Assembly: GCA_009786285.1 (NCBI GenBank)
Contig: WQTK01000339.1
Coordinates: 8,061-72,060 of the forward strand
Reading direction: 5' to 3'
From: Candidatus Fibrimonadales bacterium
Lineage (GTDB): Bacteria; Fibrobacterota; Fibrobacteria; Fibrobacterales; Fibrobacteraceae
Length of the DNA: 64,000 nt
Position 1 is the first letter of the stretch, and every line of letters begins with the position of its first letter. Of this stretch, positions 5,493 through 64,000 are shown in pieces. The notes under the pieces are model-generated. The model had not been told where the DNA came from. It did not search any database and worked only from the letters and a program-made list of their open reading frames with translations. Position numbers and translations under genes: made by a program.

Positions 5493-5516
5493 AGTTTGTA
5501 AAACCTTGACAAGCTT

Positions 5517-6182: not shown

Positions 6183-6269
6183 AGGCTTTTGCAAAAACAT
6201 ATTTTGGTAAATCAGGTTCATTACATTGGAAATATAGAAAATTTAATCTTTGCTTGGAATGTCGATTCC

Positions 6270-6323
6270 AAAAGTGTCAAAAAAGTGTTTAAACACGTGT
6301 TTAAACACTTTTTTGACACTTTG
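6270..6323. repeat. perfect 54-bp palindrome centred on CACGTG
   Basis: Manual base pairing gives 27-nt arms with no mismatch. The palindrome explains the identical peptide VKKVFKHVFKHFFDT in the ORFs on both strands. Confidence 0.95.
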
Positions 6324-6395
6324 AAACCCCGTTTTTGCTTCAAAATAGCCGTTTTTAGCTTGGCATGTTTTTTGTCTTATATAATTTGCTATATT

Positions 6396-9219: not shown

Positions 9220-9221
9220 GT

Positions 9222-9713: not shown

Positions 9714-9811
9714 AGTTTTATTTGCGAATAACCTGGCTAGCCATAAAAGAAATTCATTTAAAATCACTTAATCCTCAATTCGCAAATTGCGAATTTTCTA
9801 TATTATCAGGC

Positions 9812-11006: not shown

Positions 11007-11032
11007 TCTCGCCATTTTCTATATTCCCTCAT

Positions 11033-18774: not shown

Positions 18775-18775
18775 A

Positions 18776-48429: not shown

Positions 48430-49005
48430 TTAAAATGCAAAGCCAAACCCAAAGTTAACGTCAACAGACCTAAAGCTAGAACCAGAAGACCCCCCTAATG
48501 CCCAAAAGGGAGCATCATCTCTAGGCAAAGAATCCCATCCATAACCCACTATGCCCACACCCAGATCAATAAATATACCACCCATGTGAGATTTAAATGA
48601 ATATCCAACATAGCCTAGGATATCTATAATTATACCACTAGTAAAGTCGTTTTTAAAGCGATAAACGCCTGGCATTAATTGTAAATAAAACCCATCAGTT
48701 TTATCGTTTATAAAGCGCCGAATGCCAACTCCAGAACCTATCCTAGAATAATAACTACTCTTTGTCTCATCATCTGCCATAGCTCCCAAGTTTTTGGAAT
48801 ATATAAAAGATGGGTTTATGATTATAGAATAAGACCAGTTTAATGGATATTCCACTGTTAAGTAAATAAAAGGTTCTTTTGCCACAGAAGTAAGTATCAA
48901 AGAAGTATGATGTATGTAAACGAAAACTTTATTATTGTCATCATAAGCAAACACAAGTGAGTATAAAAATACGAACGGCAGCAATCTTTTGGTCATTAGG
49001 AGCAA
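48430..49005 (-). CDS. putative outer-membrane beta-barrel protein
   Basis: A signal peptide, Gly/aromatic-rich alternating strands and the C-terminal FGFAF. Confidence 0.4.
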   Translation of the reverse strand: MLLMTKRLLPFVFLYSLVFAYDDNNKVFVYIHHTSLILTSVAKEPFIYLTVEYPLNWSYSIIINPSFIYSKNLGAMADDETKSSYYSRIGSGVGIRRFINDKTDGFYLQLMPGVYRFKNDFTSGIIIDILGYVGYSFKSHMGGIFIDLGVGIVGYGWDSLPRDDAPFWALGGSSGSSFRSVDVNFGFGFAF

Positions 49006-49186
49006 TTTAGAAAATTTAAAAACACAGGAGATGTGTTTGCTCGCAGTGAAAAGAGGTTATTGAGAAGTTGATATATTTGAAGAAGAGTTGCATTTGGTCA
49101 TATATAAAATACACAAACCTTTTGTCCATGATGAGAAAAATCAGGATAGAATGGGAATATGCAGTGGATTGATATTTAGCAAAATA

Positions 49187-49207
49187 GCGACAATGGCTGG
49201 CGTTGTG
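49187..49207 (+). promoter_or_regulatory. operator-like motif, copy A: GCGACAATGGCTGGCGTTGTG, 6 nt upstream of TATATT (49214-49219)
   Basis: Identical to copy B and 19/21 to copy C. It has the quasi-palindrome CGACA-N5-TGGCG. Confidence 0.6.
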
Positions 49208-49250
49208 GCTTTGTATATTCCTCTTTAACATCAACAAGTGAGGTGAAAAG

Positions 49251-49343
49251 ATGGCTAAAGTAGTGAAAATTGAAGATGGCTCTATCACAGTTATGAACGA
49301 ACTGCTTGGTGAGTCGGCTTATAGCATAAAAAATATTTTCTAA
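49251..49343 (+). CDS. possible 30-aa small ORF (MAKVVKIEDGSITVMNELLGESAYSIKNIF)
   Basis: It is preceded by the same leader and GAGGTGA Shine-Dalgarno as the gene at 52795. There is no homology evidence. Confidence 0.3.
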   Translation: MAKVVKIEDGSITVMNELLGESAYSIKNIF

Positions 49344-49369
49344 AATTAACATTTTTCTATTTTCCGTCC

Positions 49370-50254
49370 ATGGAACAAACCCAAAAAGAGAATAAAGGCG
49401 AAATAGTGCTGTATCAAGCTGAAGATATGGTAAAATTGGATGTATTGCTTGAAAATGAAACTGTTTGGTTAACACAGGCGCAAATGGGACAATTGTTTGA
49501 AAAAAGCAGAAATACAATAACCGAGCATATACAAAATGTTTTCAAGGAAGGCGAATTACAAGAAGAAATGGTATGTCGGGATTTCCGACATACCACTCAA
49601 CACGGAGCAATAGAAGGCAAAACGCAAGTAGCAACAACAAAATATTACAATTTAGATGTTATTATTTCAGTAGGTTATCGAGTTAAGTCAAAAAAAGGCA
49701 CTCAGTTTAGGATTTGGGCTACCCAAGTGTTAAAGAATTACCTGCTTAAAGGATATGCCATTCGTCAACAAATAGAAAGCATAAAAAAGATATCCAATAA
49801 TCACGAGAGTCGTTTAATTGAAGTCGAAAAGAAAATTGATGTTTTCATAAAAACATCCGCTATGCCCTTAGAAGGAATTTTCTATGATGGGCAAATTTTT
49901 GATGCTTATACGTTTGTCTGCAATTTGGTAAAATCAGCGAAAAAGAGTATTATTCTCATTGATAATTGGGTAGATGAAAGCGTTTTGACTTTACTATCCA
50001 AAAGAAAAGACAAAGTATCGACTGAAATCTACACGCCAAAAATATCACAACAATTTCAATTAGATATTACAAAACATAATTCACAATATCCGCCAATTAA
50101 TGTGAAGATTTACCAAAAGGCGCATGATAGATTTCTGCTGATTGATGAGAATACTTATCACATAGGGGCATCAATTAAAGATTTGGGGAAAAAGTTGTTT
50201 GCATTTTCAAAGATGCAGATAAAAGCTAGTGACTTGCTTGAATCACTCCACTAG
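49370..50254 (+). CDS. RhuM-family (virulence-associated / ORF6N-type DNA-binding) protein
   Basis: IVLYQAEDM..LDVLLENETVWLTQAQMGQLF...YNLDVIISVGYRVKSKKGTQFRIWAT, and C-terminal HDRFLLIDENTYHIGASIKDLGKK. Confidence 0.7.
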   Translation: MEQTQKENKGEIVLYQAEDMVKLDVLLENETVWLTQAQMGQLFEKSRNTITEHIQNVFKEGELQEEMVCRDFRHTTQHGAIEGKTQVATTKYYNLDVIISVGYRVKSKKGTQFRIWATQVLKNYLLKGYAIRQQIESIKKISNNHESRLIEVEKKIDVFIKTSAMPLEGIFYDGQIFDAYTFVCNLVKSAKKSIILIDNWVDESVLTLLSKRKDKVSTEIYTPKISQQFQLDITKHNSQYPPINVKIYQKAHDRFLLIDENTYHIGASIKDLGKKLFAFSKMQIKASDLLESLH

Positions 50255-50370
50255 CTACCGCCCCTAAAATTATACAATAATCAAATAACCGTTAAATAAG
50301 AATTAAGTGCCTAAAAACAGCCTAAGCAAGCCATTACCGTTACCAAAAATAGGATTTTCTTGTGAAAATA

Positions 50371-50391
50371 GCGACAATGGCTGGCGTTGTG
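50371..50391 (+). promoter_or_regulatory. operator-like motif, copy B: GCGACAATGGCTGGCGTTGTG, 6 nt upstream of TATATT (50398-50403); the ATG lies 7 nt after the box
   Basis: The 27-nt stretch AAAATAGCGACAATGGCTGGCGTTGTG is identical to copy A. Confidence 0.6.
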
Positions 50392-50410
50392 AAATTTTAT
50401 ATTAATAGAT

Positions 50411-52711
50411 ATGTCTGGTAAATGGGATAATCCGAGTGTTCCTAACAGCGGTTGGGAATGTGTTGACGTTCAAGATTTGGGCGAGCCGATTATGACTTGC
50501 CAAATGTGTGAACGGGAAATAATTCGCTATGCGCATTATATGCAGCATCCGGCTTATAGATATGGATTGACAGTTGGCTGTATATGCGCTGGAAAAATGG
50601 AAGGCGATATGCAAAGCGCTAAAGAACGCGACGCATTTATGAAAAGCCGGATGAACAAAAGAAAAAACTGGCTTGAAAGAAAATGGAAAATATCCAAAAA
50701 CGGAAACCAATATGTAAAATCAGATGGTTTTCTTGTTGTTATGAAACAGAAAGACGGACTATGGAGTGCTTTTGTGAAAAGCGAAAGCGGAGATTTTGAA
50801 AAATGGAGCTCACGAAAAAATGTAAATGAAAACGAAATGAAACTGGCCGCCTTCGACTGCTTGACAAAAGTTTTAGCCGAAAAACGAAAGCCGTTGCCGC
50901 CGCCACAGCCATTACCATCACCGCCATTACCGTCACCGCCAGTATTGCAAATGCAAGCGCCGCCGTCACAGCCACAGCCAAAAATAAAGGAAGCTAAAAA
51001 CGATTCGGTTAATTTCACAAGCGAACAGAATAATATTTTTGAATTTATAAAAAGCGGAACGGGGCATGGAATAATAGATGCTGTTGCAGGGGCCGGAAAA
51101 ACCACAACAATAATGGAATGCGCAAAATATGTTGAAGATAAAACCAATGTTCTTTTCTGTGCGTTTAATAAGAGCATACAAAGCGAAATAGCAAACAAAT
51201 TCAGCAAACGGGGGCTAAATCAGGTAACTGTGAAAACCATTCATGCATTGGGTTTTCAAATATTAAAAGACAATAACAGCAGCAGCAAAAAATTCGTTGC
51301 GCAAGATTCAAAATACTGGACTATTCTGAACAAAGATGTAGAAATGCACAGGGAAATTCAAGCTTATATGGAAGAACTTTTGCGCATAAACGACTACGAA
51401 CTAAATGAGATTGAGAGCTACAAGCAATTTGCCGTTAGAGACATAATCCATAAATTCAAAGACCGATTGCTTGATATGAACCAAAAAATCAGGGCAACTT
51501 TAACTCCGTGCGATTTGGAAAAATTTAAGAATCTGGTTGAGCATTTTAATTTCTTTACCGAAGAAGAAATCAAGAAAAAAAAATTTGACAGAGAAATTGA
51601 GATTTATTTTGAGTGTGGCAAAATTTTGCTTTATGCAGGGAATGCTTTGGCAAAAGAGGCTTTGGTTATAGATTACACCGATATGCTTTATTTGCCTTTT
51701 ATTTGGAATTTGAGGGCATCAAGAACATATTCATTTTTGTTTATAGACGAATGCCAGAATTTATCAAAGTCTCAGCTTGCAGTGGTTCTTAAATACGGTC
51801 AAAGAGAGGGCAGGATTTTAGCCGTTGGAGATCCGTATCAGAGCATTTACGGTTTTGCCGGAGCAGACATAGAATCTTTTGACAGAATTAAAAACACCAT
51901 AAGGGCGAATCCTCTTCCTCTAACAACCTGTTTCAGGTGCCCGCCGAATGTTGTATCGCTTGCGGCCAGCATTAGGCGTGATATTTCTGCGAGCAAGCAG
52001 GAGCCGGGGGTAATTGAGGAGATTGCCTTTAAGCAGGTTATAAAGATGGCGAAGATAAATGATTTGATAATTTCTAGGTACAGGGAGCCTATTTTATTTT
52101 TGGTTTTTGAGTTTATAAATAAGAACATACAAGTGCAAATTCACAAGGATGAGGTTAATGACATTATAGATGAGTTGAAGAATTTATTTAAGCAGGAGGA
52201 GCGGGCTGCGATTATTACGGAAATTTCCGGTGGCTTTGAGACCATAAAGGATACCGTTTTCAACAGGTGGCTTTTTATTATTGAACGAGAGGCGAAAAGG
52301 CTGGAAAATTCCAGCGAGAGGCCGGTTTACATTAAGGCGAAAACGGAGTATTTGAATAACAGGCTTGAATTTATGCATAAAAAATATTTGCAGTGGAAAA
52401 ATTCTTGCCAAACGGTAAATGATATGTTGGTAAAAATAAAGGATTATATTTCTGCAACGGATAATTGCATTAAGCTTTCTACGATTCACAGGGCAAAAGG
52501 TTTGGAAGCGAGGCGTGTTTTTATTTTGAATTTCAATGATTTGCCGCATTTTAAACCTAATCAGAAGCCGTGGGAAAGGATTCAGGAGCAAAATTTGAAA
52601 TATGTAGCCATAACTCGGGCGTTGGAAGAGCTTTATTTGGTGAAGAGCGAGAAAATTGATGATATTAAGAAGGAAGCAAGTTTGTTTGATGAGTTTTTGG
52701 TGGATATATAG
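50411..52711 (+). CDS. SF1 UvrD/Rep-like helicase with an N-terminal Cys-rich domain and a Pro-rich linker
   Basis: Walker A AGAGKTTT (about 51086-51109), FIDECQNLS, VGDPYQSIYGFAGA, TCFRCP, STIHRAKGLEA and VAITRA. The N-terminus is W-C...CxxC...GCIC, and the linker is PLPPPQPLPSPPLPSPP. Confidence 0.85.
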   Translation: MSGKWDNPSVPNSGWECVDVQDLGEPIMTCQMCEREIIRYAHYMQHPAYRYGLTVGCICAGKMEGDMQSAKERDAFMKSRMNKRKNWLERKWKISKNGNQYVKSDGFLVVMKQKDGLWSAFVKSESGDFEKWSSRKNVNENEMKLAAFDCLTKVLAEKRKPLPPPQPLPSPPLPSPPVLQMQAPPSQPQPKIKEAKNDSVNFTSEQNNIFEFIKSGTGHGIIDAVAGAGKTTTIMECAKYVEDKTNVLFCAFNKSIQSEIANKFSKRGLNQVTVKTIHALGFQILKDNNSSSKKFVAQDSKYWTILNKDVEMHREIQAYMEELLRINDYELNEIESYKQFAVRDIIHKFKDRLLDMNQKIRATLTPCDLEKFKNLVEHFNFFTEEEIKKKKFDREIEIYFECGKILLYAGNALAKEALVIDYTDMLYLPFIWNLRASRTYSFLFIDECQNLSKSQLAVVLKYGQREGRILAVGDPYQSIYGFAGADIESFDRIKNTIRANPLPLTTCFRCPPNVVSLAASIRRDISASKQEPGVIEEIAFKQVIKMAKINDLIISRYREPILFLVFEFINKNIQVQIHKDEVNDIIDELKNLFKQEERAAIITEISGGFETIKDTVFNRWLFIIEREAKRLENSSERPVYIKAKTEYLNNRLEFMHKKYLQWKNSCQTVNDMLVKIKDYISATDNCIKLSTIHRAKGLEARRVFILNFNDLPHFKPNQKPWERIQEQNLKYVAITRALEELYLVKSEKIDDIKKEASLFDEFLVDI

Positions 52712-52731
52712 ATTTTTTTGGAAAAGAAATT

Positions 52732-52752
52732 GCGACAATGACTGGCGTTGTA
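52732..52752 (+). promoter_or_regulatory. operator-like motif, copy C: GCGACAATGACTGGCGTTGTA, 6 nt upstream of TATATT (52759-52764)
   Basis: 19/21 to copies A and B. The downstream 36-nt leader is nearly identical to that of copy A. Confidence 0.6.
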
Positions 52753-52794
52753 GATTTCTATATTCCTTTTTAACATCAACAAGTGAGGTGAAAA

Positions 52795-53232
52795 ATGTCA
52801 GAAATGAGATGTCAGTTTTGTGGCAAGGAACTGCAAGAGTATGAACTTAGCGGAGGTTCGTATTGTCAAAGCGGACCAGATAATAAGCATCAACCCGCCA
52901 AAGGATCAGGATTAGAAATGAGATGTTGTTTTTGTGGCAAGGAGTTACAAGAATATGAACTTAGCGGAGGTTCGTATTGCCAAAGTGGACCAAATAACAA
53001 GCATCTACTGGTTTTAGTAAATGAAATGAGATGTTGTTTTTGTGGCAAGGAGTTACAAGAGTATGAGCTTAGTGGGGGTTCATATTGCCCAAGTGGGTCT
53101 AACAACAAACATAAGCTAGCTTCAGAGGCTGAAATGAAATGCTGTTTTTGTGGTAAAGAACTGCAGGAGTATGAACTTAGCGGAGGTTCGTATTGCAATG
53201 ATGGGCCGGGGAACAAGCATAGGCTGGCTTGA
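52795..53232 (+). CDS. protein made of four tandem C3H zinc-knuckle-like repeats
   Basis: EMRCCFCGKELQEYELSGGSYCxSGPxNKH occurs four times (CxxC-x14-C-x7-H, counted). Confidence 0.7.
   Translation: MSEMRCQFCGKELQEYELSGGSYCQSGPDNKHQPAKGSGLEMRCCFCGKELQEYELSGGSYCQSGPNNKHLLVLVNEMRCCFCGKELQEYELSGGSYCPSGSNNKHKLASEAEMKCCFCGKELQEYELSGGSYCNDGPGNKHRLA
52801..53229. repeat. in-frame tandem repeat, 4 copies, period 114/108/108 bp
   Basis: The GAAATGAGATG units start at 52801, 52915, 53023 and 53131. Confidence 0.9.
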
Positions 53233-53243
53233 TGAGGTGAAAA

Positions 53244-53819
53244 ATGGCTAAAAAAGCTAAACCTGTAGCAAAGAAAACTCCTGTTAAAATTGCGTCGGCA
53301 AATCCAGCAGCGACTAAAGCTCAACCTGCAACAAGAGAACAATACGAAACATGGAAGAAAGAAAAAGATAAAAAAGTGAATGCCATTTTAGATTCCGCTT
53401 ATCCAAAATTATTATCTCCCGATGTAACTCAGGAAATGCAGGAAATGCTGAATGTTTCCAGTTCTGTTATTGGAAGTTTATCAGCAAAAACACAAGAAAT
53501 CATAGAAGTGTTGGAAAGTTCCTTCTCTATTGTTGGAGGTTTATCGGTAAAGCTAGTTGAAGATTTTTTGAATGGGAAAGATATAAATACAAAGCAATGT
53601 CGCAAGATTTTGAAAATACTTGATGTTTTTGAAGGTTCTAGTAATTTTGATTATTTTGACGAATATGCAGACAAAGGAGTCATAGGAATTAGATGCCATA
53701 GCATAGGTTATCTAATCAGAATTTACATTGTGAATATGGCTATTCGCAAATTAAAACAGGAAAATCCGAAATTAGGTGAGTTGCTTCAAATTTTGGATGA
53801 GTTGGATATAGAGAGATGA
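53244..53819 (+). CDS. hypothetical protein with a Lys/Ala/Pro-rich (histone-H1-like) N-terminal tail
   Basis: MAKKAKPVAKKTPVKIASANPAATKAQPA is followed by a helical domain. It starts 11 nt after the upstream stop and has a GAGGTGA Shine-Dalgarno. Confidence 0.5.
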   Translation: MAKKAKPVAKKTPVKIASANPAATKAQPATREQYETWKKEKDKKVNAILDSAYPKLLSPDVTQEMQEMLNVSSSVIGSLSAKTQEIIEVLESSFSIVGGLSVKLVEDFLNGKDINTKQCRKILKILDVFEGSSNFDYFDEYADKGVIGIRCHSIGYLIRIYIVNMAIRKLKQENPKLGELLQILDELDIER

Positions 53820-53958
53820 GACAATTCTTTGAAAAAAGTAGAACTAAAATCAATAGCTGCTCAACCAAATGCAGGGAAGAAGTCTCCAACTGCGGCTCGA
53901 GTAAAGAAATGAGGCTTTTGAGTTTTGTATATTTGCGTTTAACAAAAAGGAGATAAAA

Positions 53959-56898
53959 ATGTTTTTAAATTCTAAAAAATTCTATGAAGATCTTTGCGAA
54001 AATAATATTCTTGATTACGGCCGTAAGGAAAAACATCTTGAGCATTTTGGAAATCTTTATGCCGATAATACACACTTTATCTATGAACTATTGCAAAATG
54101 CAGAGGATGCAAAAGCGAAGTCTATTCTATTTCAATTATTTGATGACCGTTTAGAGATTTTACATAATGGACAAAAATTCTCCGAGGAGAATGTTAAAGC
54201 AATTACACAAATTGCAGAAAGTGCAGAAAGTGAATATAAAAAAATTGGAAAATTTGGACTTGGTTTTAAATCAGTATATGCAATAACTGATATCCCACAA
54301 ATATATTCTGGAGATTTTCATTTTAATATAGAAAAATACATTCGTCCATCAGAAATACCCAACAGGAAAATTGATGATAAATGGACAACTTTATTTGTCT
54401 TGCCTTTCAAAATAGATAAAAAACAGGAAATTTATGAAAAAATATCAAAAAGACTACAGAATACAAACGTACGCATTTTATTATTTTTAACTTATATTGA
54501 AGAAATGAAATTTAGTATAAAAAACATATGTGATGGCAAGTATTTGAGAAAAAACGAAAATAAAAATGGGTTAAATCAAATTGTTGTTACAAGCCAAGAT
54601 AAATCAGAAAATTTATTTGTATTTGATAAAGAGATTGATAACAAAAAAGTAGAAATAGCATTCTTATATGATGAGAAGGAAAATATAATAAATAAAACAA
54701 TAGATACAGATTTAGTCGTATATTTCCCAACCGCAAAAAAAACTAACCTTGGCTTTCTACTTCACGGAAACTTTAACACAACTCCTGCTCGCGATAATAT
54801 TCTGGAAGATGACAAACATAACAACGCTCTTGTAAAGATGGCTGCGGAATTATTGGTTGAAGCGATGCAGAAAATTAAATCCGCTAATTTGTGTAATATA
54901 TCATTTTTAGAATCCCTCCCCATAATAGCCTCTGATTTTCCAGAGAGTAATATCTTTTATCCATTGTTTAAAATAACAGCAAATACCCTTAAGCATCAAA
55001 ATTATTTGCCTATGTCAATAGGAGGATTTATCTCTGCTGAAAAAGCAATTATCGCAGCTACATCTGACTTAATTGATTTGTATGAACCTGACGGGAAGCA
55101 TTGGTTGTCAAAAGAAATAACCGAAAAATATTTACATTTATATAATTATTTACGACATTCCCTTGGCATTGAATATGTAACACCAGATAAATTTGCAAAT
55201 AGAATTGATGAAAATTTTCTTCACAAACAATCAGATGATTGGTTCATAAAATTTTATATTTTTTTGAACAATGGGCGAAATGCTCTATGGCGCGAAACTC
55301 CTAATCCTGAAGGTGTTCTACGCTCAAAACCTATCCTTCGCCTTGAAGATAATACTTTAAAAACACCAAAAGAAGAAGTTTTTCTTCCGATAGAAAATTC
55401 TGTATCCAATTGTCCAATGATTAAATCTTCAATTGCAACCAATGAAGAAGCTTTAGCTTTTTTAAAAGTATTAGGATTGGACAAGCCTGAACCGATAGAT
55501 GATATTATACAGAGAATTTTTCCAAAATATAAAACTACTCCATACGTATCAGAAGCAGAATACAAAAATGATTTAAACTCAATTCTAACTATATTAAAAG
55601 ACGAAACACAAGATGAAAAAAATAAATTAAAAGGAAGACTACAAAACCTAATGGTTATAAAATGTTCCGATGAAAAATTTAGAAAACCTTCTGATGTTTA
55701 CTGCAATAATGAGAATATGAAAAAATGGTTTAAGTACTCGAGTAACATACACTTTGCAAACAATATATTAAATAATTGTGATTGGAAATTATTCAATGTA
55801 GCCGATTTACCTCGTAAAATACTTCTAAATACTCTTCCTAATGGAGTCCAAAAAGCGTATTTTCCTAGATACAACGCCAAAGAATATAAAATTGAAAATT
55901 ATGACTTGGATGGCTTGAACGATTTCATTATAAACATAAATCCCGATGATTCTCAAATTATCGCGAACGTTATCGTTTCTAAATTTTATGTCGACAGACG
56001 TCTTTTTGATGGAGAGCAGGATTATTCTTATAATGGCCCTAAAAAGTCTTATTTCAAAAATAATATCCATCAAATATTAAATAATTCGAAATGGATTCTT
56101 GGAAATGATGGTAAATTGTATGAACCAAAAGGCATCATAGCAGAAGATATCGCTAAAAATATTGCCGAAAACATAATTAATATTAATTTGCCCTTTGATT
56201 TTAAAAAAAACGAAGAAAAAGAATTAGAAGAAAATTTAGCAACCTTAGGAAAAAAAATTGTTAACTTAGCGGAATATGAAGAATTTCAAAAATGGAAAGA
56301 ATTGAACGATGAAGAAAAGTCGCAAGATTTATATGAAGGTATTTTAGAACCTCAATATTCAATTGATGAAACAACGCCAATCGAAAGGTCAATAGCTCTA
56401 ATGCAAGAAGATAAAGGAATAGGAGGTTCTAGAAAAATCTCTTTTCTAGAACAAACAGTGAATATTCTACCAGATGTGAAAATTAAAACTCCTATTCTAG
56501 ACACTAAAAAAGCTAAAGAAATCGGACAACGTGGCGAAGATATAGTAAAAAAATTTTTGATAGACAATGAAGGATTTAATGAAAATGACATAAACATTCT
56601 TAATAATGAAGAGAATGTCGGAACGGGTCGGGATTTTGAAGTTAAAAAAAATGGCGAAATTATCAAAATTATAGAAGTAAAATCTACAGTCGATCTAGGA
56701 CCAGTTCATACATTTCCTATTTCAGGAAAACAATGGGAAACTGGACGCAGAGAACAAGATAAATTCTGGATTTATGCAGTATTTAACGTATGGAGCAAAG
56801 AGCCTATAGTTGTACGGATTCAAAATCCAATTAAGCAATGGAAATACGGTGATATAGAAGCGCAGCTTGTAAATTTAATTAGTAGGATAAAATCCTAA
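53959..56898 (+). CDS. sacsin-type GHKL ATPase fused to a C-terminal DUF3883-like (restriction-endonuclease-fold) domain
   Basis: YELLQNAEDA (54085-54111) and IGKFGLGFKSVY form the Bergerat-fold N-terminus. The C-terminus is GQRGEDIV...GRDFEV...IEVKST...FWIYAV. Confidence 0.7.
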   Translation: MFLNSKKFYEDLCENNILDYGRKEKHLEHFGNLYADNTHFIYELLQNAEDAKAKSILFQLFDDRLEILHNGQKFSEENVKAITQIAESAESEYKKIGKFGLGFKSVYAITDIPQIYSGDFHFNIEKYIRPSEIPNRKIDDKWTTLFVLPFKIDKKQEIYEKISKRLQNTNVRILLFLTYIEEMKFSIKNICDGKYLRKNENKNGLNQIVVTSQDKSENLFVFDKEIDNKKVEIAFLYDEKENIINKTIDTDLVVYFPTAKKTNLGFLLHGNFNTTPARDNILEDDKHNNALVKMAAELLVEAMQKIKSANLCNISFLESLPIIASDFPESNIFYPLFKITANTLKHQNYLPMSIGGFISAEKAIIAATSDLIDLYEPDGKHWLSKEITEKYLHLYNYLRHSLGIEYVTPDKFANRIDENFLHKQSDDWFIKFYIFLNNGRNALWRETPNPEGVLRSKPILRLEDNTLKTPKEEVFLPIENSVSNCPMIKSSIATNEEALAFLKVLGLDKPEPIDDIIQRIFPKYKTTPYVSEAEYKNDLNSILTILKDETQDEKNKLKGRLQNLMVIKCSDEKFRKPSDVYCNNENMKKWFKYSSNIHFANNILNNCDWKLFNVADLPRKILLNTLPNGVQKAYFPRYNAKEYKIENYDLDGLNDFIININPDDSQIIANVIVSKFYVDRRLFDGEQDYSYNGPKKSYFKNNIHQILNNSKWILGNDGKLYEPKGIIAEDIAKNIAENIININLPFDFKKNEEKELEENLATLGKKIVNLAEYEEFQKWKELNDEEKSQDLYEGILEPQYSIDETTPIERSIALMQEDKGIGGSRKISFLEQTVNILPDVKIKTPILDTKKAKEIGQRGEDIVKKFLIDNEGFNENDINILNNEENVGTGRDFEVKKNGEIIKIIEVKSTVDLGPVHTFPISGKQWETGRREQDKFWIYAVFNVWSKEPIVVRIQNPIKQWKYGDIEAQLVNLISRIKS

Positions 56899-56936
56899 TA
56901 ATATTTTGATCAAGCATTTTTTAACCATTAAAAATC

Positions 56937-56957
56937 ACGACACCCACTGTCGCAACG
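56937..56957 (+). promoter_or_regulatory. operator-like motif, copy D (diverged): ACGACACCCACTGTCGCAACG, containing the perfect inverted repeat CGACA-N5-TGTCG; 6 nt upstream of TACATT (56964-56969)
   Basis: It has the same AAAAT prefix, the same spacing to the -10-like box and the same 7-nt distance from box to ATG as copy B. Confidence 0.5.
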
Positions 56958-56976
56958 CATTTGTACATTATAAATC

Positions 56977-57531
56977 ATGAACCAATGCACCAAATGCAAC
57001 CGCTCGCTAAAACCCGCCGCAAAGTTCTGCTCCGCTTGCGGCACGGCTGTACAACCCACCCCACAATGCGCAAAATGCGGAACTTATTGCGAAAAAGACG
57101 CTAAATTCTGCTCAGAATGCGGAAGCGTTGTTGGAGTAGATGCAGCTTTGTTTGGAGAATTTGTTGATGACAGAGACGGCACACGATACAGAACCGTGAA
57201 AATAGATGGCAAAATCTGGATGGCAGAAAACTTGAACTACGATGGAAAAAGCGTCTATGACTGGGCTAACGCCCGGAACGCTTGCCCAGACGGATGGCAC
57301 CTACCCAGCTTTAGAGAATGGTACGAACTCCTGAACTCTAACTGCGAAAACAGCGAATTTTACAGGATTTTCGGCATTGGCAAACACGACCACTGGTGGT
57401 GCGCAGAAGAAGATAGCAAAGAAAGAAGCCTCTCGTGGCACATATCGCATAATAATGGCTTTTTTTACAACAATTCACACAAATTATGCCTATTTGAAGT
57501 TCGGTGCGTGAAAGGAGGTGCCCATGATTGA
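56977..57531 (+). CDS. double zinc-ribbon plus truncated FISUMP-domain protein, with no signal peptide or TM segment
   Basis: CTKCN..FCSACG and CAKCG..FCSECG, followed by FVDDRDGTRYRTVKIDGKIWMAENLNY...CPDGWHLPSFREW...VRC. Confidence 0.7.
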   Translation: MNQCTKCNRSLKPAAKFCSACGTAVQPTPQCAKCGTYCEKDAKFCSECGSVVGVDAALFGEFVDDRDGTRYRTVKIDGKIWMAENLNYDGKSVYDWANARNACPDGWHLPSFREWYELLNSNCENSEFYRIFGIGKHDHWWCAEEDSKERSLSWHISHNNGFFYNNSHKLCLFEVRCVKGGAHD

Positions 57532-59701
57532 CTTTTCAGTTTTTTTCGCAAAACATGACGATTTCATTTTACGATATAGCGGCGGTTTTGAACTGGATTA
57601 TTATATATGCAGATATTTGCTGACAATACAAAATAATAAAAAACATTTTGCAATGGATGAGCATTTTTATGGAAGATTTTTATATTTTCTCGGAACAAAC
57701 TACTTAGAAGTTGCAATTAATTATGCAAAACGACGTTATAACAAAATCCCCCCAGAAGCTACAGATGTAAAAAAAGAAAGTAAATTATTCTTAAATTGGA
57801 AATCATTATACGAACTTCTGGATTTTCAAGAATGGAATTCAATGCTGACATTTTTGCTAAGGTTAGTCGCTCGCAAAAAACAAAAATTGGAAATTCTTGA
57901 AAAACGATTGGATTTAATATGCAAAACACTTAATCTATGCAAAATAAATAAAGAACTTCTATGCTTTCTATATTTATGGGATTACAATAACTCCATAATT
58001 TATTTGCTAGATGAGGTTAGCAGAGCCATAAATGCAAACTCAGGCAAAATAAGTTACGCCGCAATTGGCCTGCTCGCAAATTATTCCGAAGAAACCGTTT
58101 TGGATGCGCTTTCCAAAGAACGTGGACTGATAAATTTAAATATTTTAAACAGTTCCGAAAAAGGAGGTTTTGGCATTCCAATTGAAATAAGAAAATATTT
58201 AAAAGGACTTGGCTCCGATAATTTCATGGGTATATATGCTGCAAACGACAGCAAACCTGCTTTGCCCATTGAAAAATTTGATTGCCAAAAAGAAGCAAAA
58301 TTTATAATAGATTTGATATCCATGCACAAAAACGAAAAGCCTCTGCATATTTTGTTCTACGGAACGGAAGGCACGGGAAAAACAGAACTCGCAAGGGCAA
58401 TAGCCGCAAATACAAATTGCTCACTCTTGGATATCGGGCGAGGAATTAAAAAACAAGTGCTTGACACGGATGAAGATATTACAAATGCATTGACAAAATT
58501 TCGCATAAGAGCGCTGACAATTACAGAAACTGCACTGAAAAACAAAAGCAATGTTATTCTGCTCATTGATGAAGCAGATAATTTGCTAAACTTCTTTGAA
58601 AAGGGCACTCTGAATCAAATAATGGAAGATATGCGAGTTCCTGTAATCTGGATTAGCAATAATCTGTTTTTTGTTAAAAAATCAAGTTTGCGCCGTTTTA
58701 ATTTCAGCATAAAATTCAAAGACAACAGCGAAAGCATGAGACTCAAAATTTGGGAAAGCGTGGTGGAAAAACATCAGGCTGGCGAGCTTTTCACAACCGA
58801 ACGCATAAAAACTCTGGCTAACAAATACAATGCAAACCCAGGCGGAATAGAACTTGCGGTTTCCAGCGAAATGCAGTTCGCAAAAAACGGCAAACAGGAA
58901 CAAGTAGCAGAACTTGTGCTGAAACAACATCTGGAACTCTTATGCACGCAAAGCAATTATAAAAACACGCAAAGCAAAGCTCCAAAATATGACGAAAACG
59001 TTTTGAATGTACATGGAATGGAAAATGCCCTGCATGCCGCAAAATGCTACGCCGAGTGCCTGAAAAACAAAGAAACGGAAAGCAATTGCACCATGCTCTT
59101 GTATGGCCCTCCAGGAACAGGCAAAACGGAATTCGCAAAGCATTTGGCAAGAATAAGCGAGCTGCCTTTCAAGGAGATAAGTTACAGCAAAATATCTTCT
59201 TGCTATGTTGGCCAAACGGAAAAGCAATTGGCAGCGGCATTTGAAGAAGCATCCAAAGAAGGCTCGCTGCTCTTTATAGACGAGGCAGACAGCCTGATTT
59301 CCGACCGAAGAAACGCAAATCAATCATGGGAAACCACGCAGGTAAATGAATTTCTGGTTCAATTGGAAAACAGCAAATGCCTTGTTGTTTGCTCAACGAA
59401 TTTCCAAGGCAAATTGGACGCTGCAAGCAATCGCAGATTTCATTTTCATTTGAGATTTGATTATCTTAAAAAAGATGGGATTTTTAAAATGGCGCAAAAC
59501 TTTTTCCCGGAATTTGAAGACGAAGCCTGGAACGAGCTTTGCAGCTTGGAATGCCTGACTCCCGGCGATTTTTACGCTGTATATAAGCGCTTGCAGTGGT
59601 TGCCGAAAAATGAACTCTCTGCTTCGCAGGTTACAAAGGAGCTAAGCGAAGTTGCCCTTGCAAAGGAGCCTTATGGAAACAGGCGCATTGGATTTTTCTA
59701 A
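57518..59701 (+). CDS. tandem AAA+ ATPase with an N-terminal domain of about 270 aa of unknown function
   Basis: AAA-1: GTEGTGKT (58361-58384) and LLIDEAD. AAA-2: GPPGTGKT (59105-59128), LLFIDEADSL and SNRRF (arginine-finger region). Confidence 0.8.
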   Translation: MPMIDFSVFFAKHDDFILRYSGGFELDYYICRYLLTIQNNKKHFAMDEHFYGRFLYFLGTNYLEVAINYAKRRYNKIPPEATDVKKESKLFLNWKSLYELLDFQEWNSMLTFLLRLVARKKQKLEILEKRLDLICKTLNLCKINKELLCFLYLWDYNNSIIYLLDEVSRAINANSGKISYAAIGLLANYSEETVLDALSKERGLINLNILNSSEKGGFGIPIEIRKYLKGLGSDNFMGIYAANDSKPALPIEKFDCQKEAKFIIDLISMHKNEKPLHILFYGTEGTGKTELARAIAANTNCSLLDIGRGIKKQVLDTDEDITNALTKFRIRALTITETALKNKSNVILLIDEADNLLNFFEKGTLNQIMEDMRVPVIWISNNLFFVKKSSLRRFNFSIKFKDNSESMRLKIWESVVEKHQAGELFTTERIKTLANKYNANPGGIELAVSSEMQFAKNGKQEQVAELVLKQHLELLCTQSNYKNTQSKAPKYDENVLNVHGMENALHAAKCYAECLKNKETESNCTMLLYGPPGTGKTEFAKHLARISELPFKEISYSKISSCYVGQTEKQLAAAFEEASKEGSLLFIDEADSLISDRRNANQSWETTQVNEFLVQLENSKCLVVCSTNFQGKLDAASNRRFHFHLRFDYLKKDGIFKMAQNFFPEFEDEAWNELCSLECLTPGDFYAVYKRLQWLPKNELSASQVTKELSEVALAKEPYGNRRIGFF

Positions 59702-59711
59702 ATTCTCCCTT

Positions 59712-60764
59712 ATGCGCTCAACGGACTCTTTAAAATGGCAGAGGATGCTCACTGCATACCAGTTTTTCATTCAGAAAAAAGGCAAGCAACAGACTGTTAA
59801 GGATGTTGAATTTTTCCTGAAAAGCACGGGCATAGAAGTTTGCACCCGAGATGTTCAGCGAGATTTGATGGAATTGAAAAACAACGGCGTTTTGGAAAAT
59901 GTCGGGAAGGGCAAGAATCTGAGATACAAAATACCCGCTATGCACGCCATAGACTTTTATAGCGATTTATACGAAAATGATATTTTTTCTTTTTTGCTCG
60001 TATCCAGAATCCTGTTTTGGATGTTTGGCGAAAACATAAGCATTGAATCTTTGGAAAAAGCTATTTCAGAGAGCTCTCGAAAACAAATTGGGCTTCATGG
60101 AAAAGATTTGTATGAGCATCTGTCTGCAAAAATGAGCGGCTTGCTTGAATATGTCGGTGAGCAGAGTGCAAAGAGCGGAAAACCTAAATTTCTGCCAATC
60201 GTTATAAAAGGATTGCTGGAGCTGAGAAAATTGGAAGTTGAATATATAGGCGCCGCAAATGAATTTCCTAAGAAAATAACTTTGGAACCTTGGGCTTTGA
60301 TTGTGTATAAATCAGCTTTGTATATTTTGAGCCCGGACAAATCAATAAAATCCAAATGGAAAACTTTCAAACTGTCTCGCTTTCAAAACGTTAAAATTTT
60401 GAGCGAAGTTTTTGAAAAGGAATCCGGCATTCTAAAGAAAGAGCTTGACCGAATGAAATTCAGCGGAACAATTTGGGACGCAAAAAACAGCCTTGAAGAA
60501 AAATCTGTTTTGATAAAACTTAAGTTTAGCTGGTACGACCGCTTGCTTTTGCAGGAAAATTTATTTTTGAACAATATGAAAATAATCGAGCATAAAAACG
60601 CAGATAAAAACAAGGCTTGGATAGAAGTTCACATGAAAAGCCCCATAAACAAAGACTTGCTGGCTTGGATTCGTTCTTGGGGTTATGACGCAAAAGTTAT
60701 TGCGCCCCAAGAATTGAAAGATGAAATGGTCAATTATGGAAAATGGCTATTACTTCACAATTAG
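59712..60764 (+). CDS. WYL-domain transcriptional regulator (HTH, WYL and WCX architecture)
   Basis: N-terminal HTH (TVKDVEFFLKSTGIEVCTRDVQRDLMELK). A WYL-like core (LEVEYIG...ITLEPWALIVYKSALYIL...WKTFKLSRFQNVKIL). C-terminal LLAWIRSWGYDAKVIAPQELK. Confidence 0.75.
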   Translation: MRSTDSLKWQRMLTAYQFFIQKKGKQQTVKDVEFFLKSTGIEVCTRDVQRDLMELKNNGVLENVGKGKNLRYKIPAMHAIDFYSDLYENDIFSFLLVSRILFWMFGENISIESLEKAISESSRKQIGLHGKDLYEHLSAKMSGLLEYVGEQSAKSGKPKFLPIVIKGLLELRKLEVEYIGAANEFPKKITLEPWALIVYKSALYILSPDKSIKSKWKTFKLSRFQNVKILSEVFEKESGILKKELDRMKFSGTIWDAKNSLEEKSVLIKLKFSWYDRLLLQENLFLNNMKIIEHKNADKNKAWIEVHMKSPINKDLLAWIRSWGYDAKVIAPQELKDEMVNYGKWLLLHN

Positions 60765-60789
60765 CTTTCGGTGGGGATTCAGGGCAATC

Positions 60790-61176
60790 TTATTTCCAAA
60801 AGCCTTTACAGTCTTCGTCTTTTACCGGGCGGTTGTTTATGTAGCATTGCCATGCCCATTTGTCATCTGCTTGCTTGAACTTTGACCAGCCGTGATACTC
60901 GCATTTATTGTTCAGTTTCATCACGGCTACCAGCTTTCTCTCAAACCATTCCCTTTCTTCGCCTCGGTCGTACATTGGTTTTCTTCTGATATAATTTGTC
61001 CATACCCGTTCTTTGCCATAACAAAAATTATTCACATAGTTTTCCCGGCAAATTAAAAATCCGGTTTCCAATTCCATGCATTTTTCATAGCTTTTCCCTT
61101 TTGCATACCATTCACCGGCAAAAACGCTTGCGGCAAGGATTGTTGCCAAAACAACGGCAGTTCTAATAATTGTCAA
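60790..61176 (-). CDS. small secreted Trp/Cys-rich protein, hypothetical
   Basis: The TTG start overlaps the TGA stop of the upstream AAA+ gene (TTGA). It has a signal-like TIIRTAVVLATILAASVFA and 6 Cys in the mature part. Confidence 0.4.
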   Translation of the reverse strand: MTIIRTAVVLATILAASVFAGEWYAKGKSYEKCMELETGFLICRENYVNNFCYGKERVWTNYIRRKPMYDRGEEREWFERKLVAVMKLNNKCEYHGWSKFKQADDKWAWQCYINNRPVKDEDCKGFWK

Positions 61177-63536
61177 AACCCAATCTTCCTGCTGCCGTAA
61201 GGCTCTTTCGCAGCCACCATTCCTTCCAGCTCCTGAATAACCCGTTTTGCGGTAAGCTCGTCTTTGGGCAGCCACTGCAACCTCTTGTACACGGCATAAA
61301 AATCACCCGGAGCCACCGCATCCATCTCGGCTATCTTTTCCCAGTTTTCATCAAAAAAATCAGGGAAAAAGTTTTCTGCCATTTTCAAAATTCCTTCCCT
61401 TTTCAAAAAACCGAAATGCAAATGAAAATGAAATCTGCGATTGCTGGCAATGTCCAAATGCCCCTGAAAATTTGTTGAGCACACAACCATGCACTTCGCG
61501 CTCTCCAGTTGCACCAAAAACTCGTTTGTCTGCGTAACTTCCCAGCTTCTAACTGCGCCCTTGCGATCTGCTATCAAACTGTCGGCCTCGTCAATAAACA
61601 GCAATTCCCCGGATTCGTTAGCCTGCTTAAAAGCTGCCGCAAGCTGTTTCTCCGTTTCGCCAACCCACATGGATGAAATTTGCCCATAGCTTATTTCCCG
61701 GAAAGAAAGCCCGCATTCCCTGGCCAGGAATTTTGCGAATTCCGTTTTGCCGGTTCCCGGAGGGCCGTAGAGAAGCATGGTCATGTTGCCTTCGGAATGC
61801 TTGCTTTTAAGCTGCTCCGAATAACACTTCGCAGAGTGCAAAACTTCGTTTAAATTGGGAATGTTCAGCACGGAGACATCGTATTTCGGAGCGCGGCTGA
61901 CTGTATGCTTGTTTGTTTTCAGACCCATAAGCTCAACGTGGTTTTCCAAAATTTCTTCGCCTATTTCCTTGTGCATCCCGCTTTCCATAAGAGCCACCTC
62001 GTTCTGCACCGCAAGTTCTATTCCGCCTGTGGAAATTTCGTATTTCTCCGCAAGTTTTTTTCTGCGCTCAGGCGAAAATATCTGCTCTGCCTTGTGCTTT
62101 TCAACAACGCTGTCCCAGAGTTTTTTGCGAATATTCTGGTTGCCCAAATCAAAGCTTACGCTGTATTGAAATCTGCGCATTGTTGAGCGCTCAATATTGT
62201 TTATGTTGTTTGTTATCCAAATCACAGGCAGTTTCAAATTTTCCAGAAACCTGTTTAAAATGCCCTTTTCAAAGCCGTTCAAAATCAAGTCAGCTTCGTC
62301 TGCCACCAGCAAAACATCTTTTTCCCTGAGGCAAATTTCAGAAATTTTCAAAGCTCTCACTCTATAAGATATAACGCCTTCCTTGTGCGTTTGCTTGCCG
62401 AAAATTCCCTGGTTGTTTTTGAATTCCGCGCCTATTTCATAGAGCGTTTTGCCGGTTTCCGCAGCTATGGAACGTGCAAGCTCGCTTTTTCCGGTGCCTT
62501 CCATTCCATAGAATAAAAAATTGAGCGAGCGATTGTTTTTATAGCTTTTAATCAAGTCGCAAATCAAAGAGGCTTCTTTCACGCAGTCAAAACGCTCAAC
62601 AGGCAATGCTTTTTTGCTGTCTATTCTTGCGTAATTTTCCAAAAAATTTCCTGAGCCAATTCCGCTTAAAAAATTCTTGACATCCGGCGGCAAATCTCCG
62701 TCTTCGTCAAGAATGCCCAGTTCTATCAGGCCCCTGGGTTTTGAGAGGGAATTCATAATAGAGTCTCTGGAGTGCCCGGTTAAAATGGAAATCACACGGT
62801 CAAGAAAATTGCTTGAGCTGTGCCTGCCCTTGAATGTTTCCATAACGCAGTCGCTAAGGTCATCCATCAGAGAGTCTTTGGATGTGGCAAAAGTCAAAGT
62901 CAAAACATCTTGGGAAACTCTGTCCAAATCCAAAGTTTCGCTTAAAATGCCGAGTCTTTCCTCAAATACATCGCTAAAATACAGAAGCTTGGCCTTGATT
63001 TGCATATCAAGAGCGTACTTGAGCATCTCCAAAAACAGAAAATTCACATCAAACGGATTTTTTACTTCGCTTAGCCAAAATTTGGAATTTAACAATTCGT
63101 TTATCATCAGCCACGACGCAAGAAAATCCGGCGCATGAAGCGCTTTGCCGAGTTTTGTCTCAAACTGGTTCCTGCTCTTCGATTGTTCCGAGTTGTTTTT
63201 CAAGTGATTTCCCGTTATCTCAATGACTCGGTTCAAGCCGTCTGTGCCGAGAAAATCTATGATTTCAACATAATGCTCGTCTCTCAAGCTAAAATCGTAA
63301 TGAGTTTTGTGCATAGAGAGCAGGTACTCAAAATATTTCGCGCATTTGCTTTCCCGCAAAGCCTTTGTGGGGCTGGAATAGCGGGTATAGCTACGCTCGT
63401 CGCTATCTTCCAAAAACCTAGCGAAATTCATTTTCCGAACTTTTTTTCTAATCACACCAGCCATTTCCTCATTTCTCTTCTTTATTATAGTTAAAAACAG
63501 CTTTAAATTTAGAAAATTTCCACTTCCAAACTCCAT
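61173..63536 (-). CDS. tandem AAA+ ATPase, paralog of 57518..59701 (alternative starts at 63464 and 63431)
   Basis: It has the same architecture and long collinear identity, for example MLLYGPPGTGKTEFAK...ELLFIDEADSLI...VVCSTNFQG...SNRRFHFHL...APGDFYAVYKRLQWLPK. Confidence 0.8.
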   Translation of the reverse strand: MEFGSGNFLNLKLFLTIIKKRNEEMAGVIRKKVRKMNFARFLEDSDERSYTRYSSPTKALRESKCAKYFEYLLSMHKTHYDFSLRDEHYVEIIDFLGTDGLNRVIEITGNHLKNNSEQSKSRNQFETKLGKALHAPDFLASWLMINELLNSKFWLSEVKNPFDVNFLFLEMLKYALDMQIKAKLLYFSDVFEERLGILSETLDLDRVSQDVLTLTFATSKDSLMDDLSDCVMETFKGRHSSSNFLDRVISILTGHSRDSIMNSLSKPRGLIELGILDEDGDLPPDVKNFLSGIGSGNFLENYARIDSKKALPVERFDCVKEASLICDLIKSYKNNRSLNFLFYGMEGTGKSELARSIAAETGKTLYEIGAEFKNNQGIFGKQTHKEGVISYRVRALKISEICLREKDVLLVADEADLILNGFEKGILNRFLENLKLPVIWITNNINNIERSTMRRFQYSVSFDLGNQNIRKKLWDSVVEKHKAEQIFSPERRKKLAEKYEISTGGIELAVQNEVALMESGMHKEIGEEILENHVELMGLKTNKHTVSRAPKYDVSVLNIPNLNEVLHSAKCYSEQLKSKHSEGNMTMLLYGPPGTGKTEFAKFLARECGLSFREISYGQISSMWVGETEKQLAAAFKQANESGELLFIDEADSLIADRKGAVRSWEVTQTNEFLVQLESAKCMVVCSTNFQGHLDIASNRRFHFHLHFGFLKREGILKMAENFFPDFFDENWEKIAEMDAVAPGDFYAVYKRLQWLPKDELTAKRVIQELEGMVAAKEPYGSRKIGF

Positions 63537-63586
63537 GAAAAAGCTTTGCGCAAGCTTAATCGCAGCTACTTAAACAAATTTAAACA

Positions 63587-63853
63587 TTAATTATCTTCCT
63601 CTGCAAGAATATCAGCGTGCATCTCTTCAACCGTGGAATAAGTTTTCGCTTTTATTTTTCCTGACATAATATCCCTAGCTTCCTGCATCGCAGCCAAAGT
63701 CTCTTCATTGTATTCCGGCTCCTCATATTGTGGAAAAACTATAACCTCAATCTTTTGCCCTATATATTCACTCGGAATAATAGTATCCAGCCTGTTCCCG
63801 CTAGGGACGCAGGTAGTTCGATACGCTTGCGGATATGCCTGTGTCGCATTCAT
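63587..63853 (-). CDS. small 88-aa protein, possibly antitoxin-like
   Basis: The C-terminal segment NEETLAAMQEARDIMSGK...STVEEMHADI resembles RelB/DinJ-type antitoxin tails. The evidence is weak. Confidence 0.3.
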   Translation of the reverse strand: MNATQAYPQAYRTTCVPSGNRLDTIIPSEYIGQKIEVIVFPQYEEPEYNEETLAAMQEARDIMSGKIKAKTYSTVEEMHADILAEEDN

Positions 63854-64000
63854 AAATGCCTCCGGTTCAAATATACAAAATATTACAAGTTACTTTGTTC
63901 TCCGTCTTCGTAGAGAATGTATATAATTCATAATAAATCATCCCAAAGAACCTCCATTTCGCTTCAAAATATTATCCATATCTTCTATTACATATATTAT

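Follow-up and report, generated by a model that had tools for sequence, protein, structure and literature searches.

A palindromic candidate operator is shared by exchangeable cargo genes and a conserved AAA+-WYL operon in a probable defence island of an uncultured Fibrobacterota bacterium

To our knowledge, the co-ordination of defence genes within a single island has been described in no more than a handful of proteobacterial cases (BrxR, CapW, and RptR). Here, we describe a locus from an uncultured phylum that gives an unusually clear picture of such an arrangement, with one palindrome at a fixed promoter position in front of both exchangeable cargo genes and the operon of the presumptive regulator. 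The locus lies in a 64,000-nucleotide stretch of contig WQTK01000339.1 (positions 8,061 to 72,060 of the forward strand; assembly GCA_009786285.1, Candidatus Fibrimonadales bacterium, Fibrobacterota), hereafter referred to as the window, and extends from about 49 kb of the window to its end. An initial annotation, made from the sequence alone, had described this part as an AT-rich, defence-like island in which several transcription units share an operator-like motif and in which the genes were argued to work together as one candidate novel system. The defence-like character and the shared motif are supported by the analysis reported here, and we conclude that the region is probably a chromosomal defence-island hot spot of a termite-gut Fibromonadaceae bacterium, in which a fixed core is combined with exchangeable cargo.

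BrxR is the repressor of a mosaic defence island and acts at inverted repeats whose halves are 5 bp apart; half of its homologs are located beside defence systems, and 97% of the homologs are proteobacterial (PMC9122601). The Fibrobacterota locus resembles those of BrxR and CapW (PMC9122601, PMC9122588) in that a WYL-WCX factor with a helix-turn-helix (HTH), predicted in the present case, is encoded inside a mosaic defence island, in that an inverted repeat with a 5-bp spacer is found at the regulator's own promoter and at another one (binding being predicted here), and in that homologous regulators accompany differing cargo. Unlike brxR and capW, however, the regulator gene is the last of an operon that also encodes a tandem AAA+ ATPase and a FISUMP protein, rather than the first gene of the system under control. 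In addition, four operators are present within 8 kb, each within a portable promoter/leader cassette, the operator occupies the −35 position at a fixed spacing from the −10 box, and the host phylum is Fibrobacterota. No significant sequence match was found between the factor and the solved structures of BrxR or CapW. A WYL-regulated mosaic defence island is a known kind of arrangement. What is new here is the portable promoter-operator cassette in front of cargo units and the position of the regulator within a conserved operon with a tandem AAA+ ATPase; so is the conservation of an operator across a phylum and, possibly, beyond it.

The second relevant precedent is PafBC, a mycobacterial WYL activator that works by sigma adaptation at promoters lacking a −35 element, where it recognizes a GTC triplet between −23 and −28 (PMC8635444). 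Similarly, the promoter-proximal half-site of the operator described here, TGTCGC, spans about −28 to −23 and includes the GTC triplet, and the target promoters have no −35 element. In contrast, PafBC is a heterodimer of two WYL proteins that recognizes a non-palindromic element and controls ~150 genes genome-wide, whereas here there is one gene and a palindrome, and the sites are local, with four of the four in the window located in the island.

The operator is a 17-bp palindrome, GCGACA-N5-TGTCGC, positioned 10-11 bp 5′ of a TAYATT −10 box. In the form CGACA-N4-CTG-N-CG it has four matches in 64 kb (at 49188, 50372, 52733, and 56938), with 0 expected by chance. All of them are in the island, and each is just 5′ of a gene start: that of a small open reading frame (ORF) followed by a RhuM gene, that of a helicase gene, that of a Cys-repeat gene, and that of the FISUMP-AAA+-WYL operon. 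The shared motif of the initial annotation is, in other words, a real feature of four transcription units. The site in front of the core operon is a near-perfect palindrome, (A/G)CGACA-N5-TGTCGC, and none of the operator promoters has a −35 consensus, the palindrome being located in its place. A search of the island against Rfam gave no family match, which means that the leader conserved behind the cargo operators is not a known RNA element, and a scan for sigma-70 promoters and terminators gave no excess over shuffles. An identical operator architecture was found at 18 sites across the window and the related loci L001, L002, L016, L022, L026, and L034. A generalized operator (CGACA-N5-TG[TG]CG plus the −10 box) occurs at 26 sites in 380 kb of Fibrobacterota loci, compared with 0 sites in the reversed sequence and 0.05 in shuffles. 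A metagenome scan with a 19-nt operator returned 24 stretches, of which four are true cassettes (one being the L001 contig again) and the remainder chance matches or an unrelated repeat.

Comparison with the related loci separates the core from the cargo. L001 and L002 carry the same FISUMP-AAA+-WYL operon, with an AAA+ protein that is 94% identical and with three operators at equivalent positions. At the DNA level, window positions 56927-60748 are 94% identical to L001, beginning 10 nt 5′ of the operator, and homology elsewhere is restricted to the cassettes and a junction scar. The upstream genes of L001 and L002 include no helicase, RhuM, or TmtA-like gene; they encode GmrSD_N, DUF4116, nucleotidyltransferase, cupin, and DUF3791/DUF3990 proteins, a two-repeat Cys protein, and a full GmrSD. 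The FISUMP protein is 92-98% identical in L001, L022, and L016, and the cassette is found in front of other genes in L001, L016, L022, and L026. The cassette is followed by three GmrSD-family genes and a DUF4116 gene in L022, by genes for a three-repeat Cys protein and a PDC-S26-like nuclease in L016, and by genes for a DUF4116 protein and a GmrSD_N/DUF7834 protein in L026. In L034, a TPR and PDDEXK_4 unit, a unit with an 85%-identical helicase and a cupin, and then the FISUMP gene are each preceded by a perfect palindrome, that of the helicase being GCGACACCCACTGTCGC. In L022, a recombination breakpoint is also present inside the core operon: at the DNA level, identity to the window drops from 96% in the FISUMP gene to 77% in the AAA+-WYL part (6027-6609 vs. 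2757-5598).

The claim that the genes from RhuM to the second AAA+ ATPase form one integrated, novel multi-operon system with interdependent parts was attractive, given that four units have the operator in common and that helicase, ATPase, and nuclease building blocks are all present. Furthermore, the operator-bearing helicase gene recurs beside the FISUMP gene in L034, and UvrD-like helicases are encoded near the AAA+ gene in six distant loci, five of them with a WYL regulator. However, cores that are 94% identical carry wholly different cargo, so that one obligate multi-gene system is ruled out, and we rejected a fixed system on the same grounds, since cargo is swapped between relatives. The RhuM and TmtA-like proteins belong to single-gene families, and no operator precedes the second AAA+ operon, which is missing from the related islands. 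The initial annotation had proposed co-occurrence across genomes as a check of this idea. When species-representative genomes were scanned with an alignment of the AAA+ protein, 80 loci were obtained (26-45% identity), in which g3, g4, the RhuM gene, and the TmtA-like gene are unlinked to the AAA+ gene: a RhuM gene is near it in only two loci, and the others in none. We therefore consider an integrated system very unlikely.

Homology between relatives ends at the promoter cassettes, and the pattern fits a recombination hot spot for which the cassettes would serve as joints. The three cargo sites are each part of a cassette of ~75 nt, and over ~75-100 nt, leader and ribosome-binding site included, these cassettes share 88-94% identity. 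This similarity, together with the recombination scar between g4 and g5, would also be expected if the cassette were a mere footprint of recent duplication or recombination, in which a strong local promoter was copied along with genes and the WYL factor had no part. Against that, the palindrome is retained without the leader, at its fixed spacing from the −10 box, in the diverged loci L034, L008, L043, L047, and L053. In L047 and L053 it precedes both the AAA+ and the WYL gene, and in L043 it heads an operon that holds both. Since the palindrome alone is conserved where the rest of the promoter differs, selection appears to act on a protein-binding site, and we give the footprint explanation little credence. 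In a hot spot of the kind favored here, the repeated cassettes could act as homology arms for cargo swapping, and the coincidence of the exchange boundaries with the promoter suggests a way in which newly arrived defence genes become regulated at once.

The candidate reader of the operator is g8, the last gene of the core operon and, as the initial annotation had stated, a WYL protein. It matches Pfam WYL (3.4e-8, residues 182-249) followed by WCX (2.3e-8, residues 287-362), both above the curated cut-offs, as well as PADLOC WYL (6.5e-19). Its N-terminus gave no Pfam HTH match. The alignment contains a YafY-like recognition-helix motif, RDVQRDL, and homologs are named YafY or HTH type 11-like. 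In the general form R-[DNS]-VQRD-[LM], this motif is common to Fibrobacterota WYL proteins only and is absent from those of other phyla. Among transcription factors, only the WYL factor is retained in every complete related locus.

Based on these observations, we suggest that a dimer of the WYL factor may bind the palindromes and so control its own operon and the cargo together, and that a phage- or DNA damage-derived ligand on the WYL domain could switch the four units on. By analogy with PafBC, there is about an even chance that the switch would be activation at promoters lacking a −35 element; release of repression, as for BrxR and CapW, would be somewhat less probable. Our slight lean toward activation stems from the missing −35 element and the rigid spacing. 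The AAA+ ATPase is probably the partner of the WYL factor, either as effector or as signal transducer, and the FISUMP protein might, speculatively, be a lineage-specific adaptor. The model makes a testable prediction, namely one factor acting at four or more promoters.

The only PDB relative of g8 is the WYL domain of PafBC, a weak match (E = 0.024). Along with the PafBC-like promoter architecture, this raises the question of whether the locus is a DNA-damage or stress regulon of the PafBC/DriD type, in which a WYL factor responds to single-stranded DNA by inducing a repair helicase together with nucleases, and in which the resemblance to defence is incidental. Some contexts of the helicase orthologs are compatible with such a regulon: besides its place behind the operator in the window and L034, the gene follows a different WYL gene and RNase T in L035/36 and has housekeeping neighbors in L037. 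Likewise, the AAA+-WYL pair of Rhodobacterales and Desulfovibrio adjoins AddAB-like genes and an ADP-ribosylglycohydrolase gene. Nevertheless, the cargo consists mostly of typical defence genes (GmrSD several times, PDC-S05, PDC-S26-like, Tiamat-like, Fic/DOC, and GNAT), and its turnover between near-identical cores is unlike that of repair regulons. The two roles are also compatible, given that DNA damage could signal defence. A damage regulon that merely looks like a defence island is, in our opinion, unlikely.

Several observations weigh against a regulated defence island with a fixed core. The connection between operator and WYL factor is one of co-occurrence, as judged from sequence, and the AlphaFold model of g8 is poor, with a predicted local distance difference test score (pLDDT) of 50 (helices 4-57 at 70-85), so that the HTH is assigned from the alignment and the names of homologs only. 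The operators of the cargo type are imperfect palindromes, with TGGCG as the second half-site, and both g5 and the convergent AAA+ operon have no operator. Close AAA+ relatives in L003, L004/5, and L007 are accompanied by neither a WYL gene nor the operator. As for the cargo, the match of g5 to TmtA covers only 61% of the profile, and the helicase need not be a defence gene, because its L037 orthologs have housekeeping neighbors. Finally, most of the related loci are short metagenome contigs from few termite-gut samples, and the source contig itself stops ~1 kb past the window, with the right border of the island beyond it.

The features of the island are listed in Table 1. The gene list of the initial annotation is borne out by ORF calls, Pfam, PADLOC, and NCBIfam.

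Table 1. Features of the island and the recBCD-sbcCD block, in window coordinates
Feature	Position	Strand	Remarks
recC, recB, recD, sbcD, sbcC	11033-22796	all +	core repair genes, ~12 kb
Operator O1 (GCGACAATGGCTGGCGT) and −10 box TATATT	49187-49219	+	opens ~75-nt promoter/leader cassette that reaches the ATG at 49251
Small ORF, 30 amino acids (MAKVVKIEDGSITVMNELLGESAYSIKNIF)	49251-49343	+	first gene after O1; called as a 30-amino acid gene on contig L118
g1, RhuM family, PADLOC candidate single-gene system PDC-S05	49370-50254	+	Pfam, PADLOC
Operator O2 and −10 box	50371-50403	+	immediately 5′ of helicase gene
g2, superfamily 1 UvrD-like helicase with Cys/His N-terminal domain and Pro/Gln-rich linker	50411-52711	+	Pfam UvrD-helicase, UvrD_C
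Operator O3 and −10 box	52732-52764	+	leader as in O1; 91% identical to O1 cassette
g3, four 36-amino acid repeats, pattern C-x2-C ... C-x7-H	52795-53232	+	internal repeat family
g4, 191 amino acids, Lys/Ala/Pro-rich N-terminus	53244-53819	+	no family match
Recombination scar and second junction, 129 nt	53816-53944	+	RhuM-like fragment, gene 3′ end, −10 box without operator
g5, sacsin-type GHKL ATPase with C-terminal NOV_C/DUF3883 PD-(D/E)xK part, TmtA-like	53959-56898	+	Pfam, PADLOC
Operator O4 (ACGACACCCACTGTCGC, near-perfect palindrome) and −10 box TACATT	56937-56969	+	5′ of core operon
g6, cytoplasmic double zinc ribbon and FISUMP (lectin-like)	56977-57531	+	first gene of core operon; Pfam, NCBIfam
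g7, tandem classic-clade AAA+ ATPase	57518-59701	+	gene caller's start is 57524; Pfam AAA twice
g8, WYL-WCX factor with predicted HTH, YafY-like, candidate operator reader	59712-60764	+	ORF opens at 59652; homologs begin at M21
g9, small Cys/Trp-rich protein, hydrophobic N-terminus, 128 amino acids as called	60790-61170	−	last gene of convergent operon
g10, paralogous tandem AAA+ ATPase, 763 amino acids as called	61173-63464	−	longest-ORF start differs from called start
g11, 88 amino acids	63587-63853	−	5′ of g10; no Pfam match
DUF3791 gene heading the convergent operon	~63938 to beyond window end	−	cut by window edge; L123 423-656

In the overall reading favored here, which we hold with moderate confidence, the cargo of the window consists of self-contained defence genes: PDC-S05, the UvrD-like helicase with its zinc domain, the Cys-repeat protein with g4, and the Tiamat-like gene. 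The initial annotation had recognized no named system in the island; this does not hold for the RhuM protein (PDC-S05) or the GHKL protein (TmtA), both of which match PADLOC families, and does hold for Gabija. Like PDC-S05, g1 has a RhuM domain (Pfam Virulence_RhuM, 2.6e-22) and matches the PADLOC profile over its full length (1.1e-123; residues 8-292 vs. positions 3-283 of 285). One representative of PDC-S05 protected E. coli against T7, T5, and T4 (PMC12881386). Unlike PDC-S05, g1 is preceded by a 30-amino acid ORF and an operator, and its defence role in the island is predicted.

Tiamat is described as a single-gene system with a PD-(D/E)xK fold (bioRxiv 10.1101/2024.10.26.620412). Similarly, g5 is a single gene with ATPase and PD-(D/E)xK parts that matches eight PADLOC TmtA profiles (best 1.8e-75), begins with a SACS/HATPase_c_3 region (Pfam SACS, 2.3e-18), and ends in NOV_C (3.6e-11), its nearest solved relatives by sequence being sacsin chains. 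It is, however, 979 amino acids long compared with profiles of 1302-1782 positions, and the match is limited to residues 32-754 against positions 36-830 of the 1302-position profile. The g5 gene is separable from the rest, because it is absent from islands with the same core. A −10 box without an operator precedes g5, which is located behind the 129-nt scar. Within the scar, a 35-nt piece with 86% identity to positions 49484-49518, in the part of the RhuM gene that codes for its HTH, is joined to the final codons of a DUF4116 gene whose intact copy is found in L026. The scar is 96% identical to L016 635-790 and 88% identical to L026 685-811, where other effector genes follow.

The N-terminal domain of the g2 helicase comprises ~155 amino acids, with C17, C30, C33, H42, H46, C57, and C59 invariant, and is confined to Fibromonadaceae-like homologs. 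The helicase core is 50-59% identical to a solitary 565-amino acid helicase family of Bacteroidota, which in Phaeocystidibacter stands alone. Only 12 relatives of g3 were found among 1.84 billion representative proteins, and those with three repeats (L016) or two repeats (L001) are likewise behind a cassette. The gap between g3 and g4 is only 11 nt, which suggests that the two are co-transcribed. No Pfam, PADLOC, NCBIfam, or PHROG family was found for g4, and no Pfam, PADLOC, or PHROG family for g9. As for g3 and g4, and likewise the N-terminal domains of the helicase and of g7, no relatives or fold are known.

Two further named systems were considered. Like the helicase of Gabija, g2 matches GajB profiles (6.5e-31); we rejected Gabija since PADLOC found no GajA (OLD/TOPRIM) among ten island proteins. 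Like Ietswaart, the second AAA+ domain of g7 and of g10 matches IetA (1e-37). We rejected this assignment as well: the IteA_antiphage scores are 116 and 99 bits compared with an NCBIfam cut-off of 510 and cover one AAA+ domain, and Pfam identified no IetS protease gene. The GajB and IetA matches reflect generic UvrD and AAA+ folds only.

The conserved AAA+-WYL core is older and wider than the island. The AAA+ protein g7 is of the Cdc48/VCP-like double-ring type, with VCP, Cdc48, and AFG2 as its closest solved relatives, and both sets of Walker A and B motifs are intact (G282-K288, D351-E352, G530-K536, and D588-E589 being invariant). Its all-alpha N-terminal domain was modeled at pLDDT 85, and the model has no PDB fold match (best E = 0.67, TM < 0.25). 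The AAA+ loci are from Fibrobacter, Comamonadaceae, Rhodobacterales, Desulfovibrio/Syntrophaceae, Haemophilus, and others. By clustering of neighboring genes, a WYL regulator is encoded within 6 kb of the AAA+ gene in 26 of 88 loci, in 12 of them directly 3′ on the same strand. The ~10-kb flanks of 87 AAA+ loci contain WYL genes in 29, ADP-ribosylglycohydrolase genes in 11, FISUMP genes in eight (seven of the eight, by clustering, in Fibrobacterota loci), and UvrD-like helicase genes in seven. In L004/5 and L007, the AAA+ gene begins within a small FISUMP gene. WYL factors are widely paired with Cdc48-like double AAA+ ATPases, and the combination is uncharacterized.

In Fibrobacter, the operator accompanies AAA+ proteins of only 28-33% identity (L043, L047, and L053). 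L047 has five sites, in front of a Fic/DOC-FISUMP-GNAT operon, a 365-amino acid gene, the AAA+ gene, and the divergent WYL gene. L053 has three, in front of a small gene, the AAA+ gene, and the WYL gene; in these two loci the palindrome also precedes Fic/DOC, GNAT, PDDEXK_4, or FISUMP genes. L043 has one site, in front of a Fic/DOC-AAA+-WYL operon that begins with Fic/DOC, and L008 (Fibromonadaceae) has three. On sequence grounds, it is suggestive that the operator is shared with a few gammaproteobacterial AAA+-WYL loci.

The AAA+ protein, the WYL factor, and the CGACA-N5-TGTCG operator might even constitute an undescribed, cross-phylum "island controller", in which the pair itself is the system and the cargo is interchangeable. 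The ATPase would then sense infection or remodel the WYL factor, which in turn would activate whatever cargo is located behind the portable cassette. We regard this extension as doubtful.

In gammaproteobacterial AAA+-WYL loci, CGACA-N5-TGTCG was observed in L105 (6048-6062), L095 (8447 and 9200), and L101 (9200 and 19685), with further sites in L081 (four sites), L114 (9168), and L078 (1776). In Haemophilus parainfluenzae, one palindrome is located ~120 nt 5′ of a RhuM gene. The palindrome is present in 6 of 22 WYL-bearing loci from outside the Fibrobacterota, compared with five of the remaining loci.

The G+C content of the window has a background of 0.41-0.47. The initial annotation had described 49-64 kb as AT-rich and had drawn a compositional argument from it. 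This is correct for 49-58 kb (0.30-0.38) and incorrect for 58-64 kb (0.40-0.44). An equally AT-rich second block at 11-23 kb (0.32-0.36) contains recBCD-sbcCD, and because these core genes are just as AT-rich, low G+C is no marker of foreign DNA here and a foreign origin based on composition was rejected. An AbiEii-like toxin gene is located just 5′ of the recC-sbcC block (10323-11006). Housekeeping genes make up the left flank of the island at 39-49 kb (for Map, YceG, NadA, a Wza-like exporter, a racemase, and DUF4416). The absence of mobility genes noted initially was confirmed: Pfam identified no integrase, transposase, or relaxase among the island proteins, there is no tRNA gene in the island, megablast gave no match between the island and plasmids or phages, and a PHROG search of the island proteins gave zero functional matches. 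Consequently, a prophage, an integrative conjugative element, and a plasmid were each rejected for the part of the island within the window.

The convergent operon (DUF3791, g11, g10, and g9) encodes a second AAA+ protein, g10, that is 45-47% identical to relatives of g7 (tblastn). DUF3791 and DUF3990 are also found among the cargo of L001.

With regard to promoters in general, the decamer TTTGTAYATT occurs seven times in the window compared with 0.44 expected (3095, 38562, 49210, 53924, 56960, 60317, and 63870 on the minus strand), mostly just 5′ of genes. Since copies are also found outside the island, it is not island-specific, and it is probably a general −10-region consensus of the organism. 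In L036 (8260-8320 and 5250-5295), a different WYL gene, behind which RNase T and a helicase ortholog of 72% identity are encoded, has a palindrome of its own, TTGGTCT-N12-AGACCAA, just 5′ of a TATAAT box. Promoters in this lineage may commonly be built with a palindrome beside the −10 box.

Finally, some minor observations concern the neighbors of the AAA+ gene. A recurrent cluster in L049, L063, and L073 (Rhodobacterales) and in L050 and L056 (Syntrophaceae/Desulfovibrio), at ~9000-20000, comprises AAA+, WYL, a phosphatase-ADP-ribosylglycohydrolase fusion (522 amino acids in the Rhodobacterales loci), and AddB/AddA-like helicase-nuclease genes. In Fibromonadaceae L003, L004/5, and L007, the AAA+ gene likewise has ADP-ribosylglycohydrolase or DUF4116 genes at its flanks. 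In L053, from a metagenome-assembled genome of Fibrobacter succinogenes, the AAA+ gene is followed by a gene (11845-12858) for a 337-amino acid protein that corresponds to the N-terminal part only of a GyrA/ParC-type topoisomerase subunit. In L007 (1-15000), at least eight FISUMP paralogs and several DUF4116 genes form a dense array in one orientation around a 60%-identical AAA+ gene.

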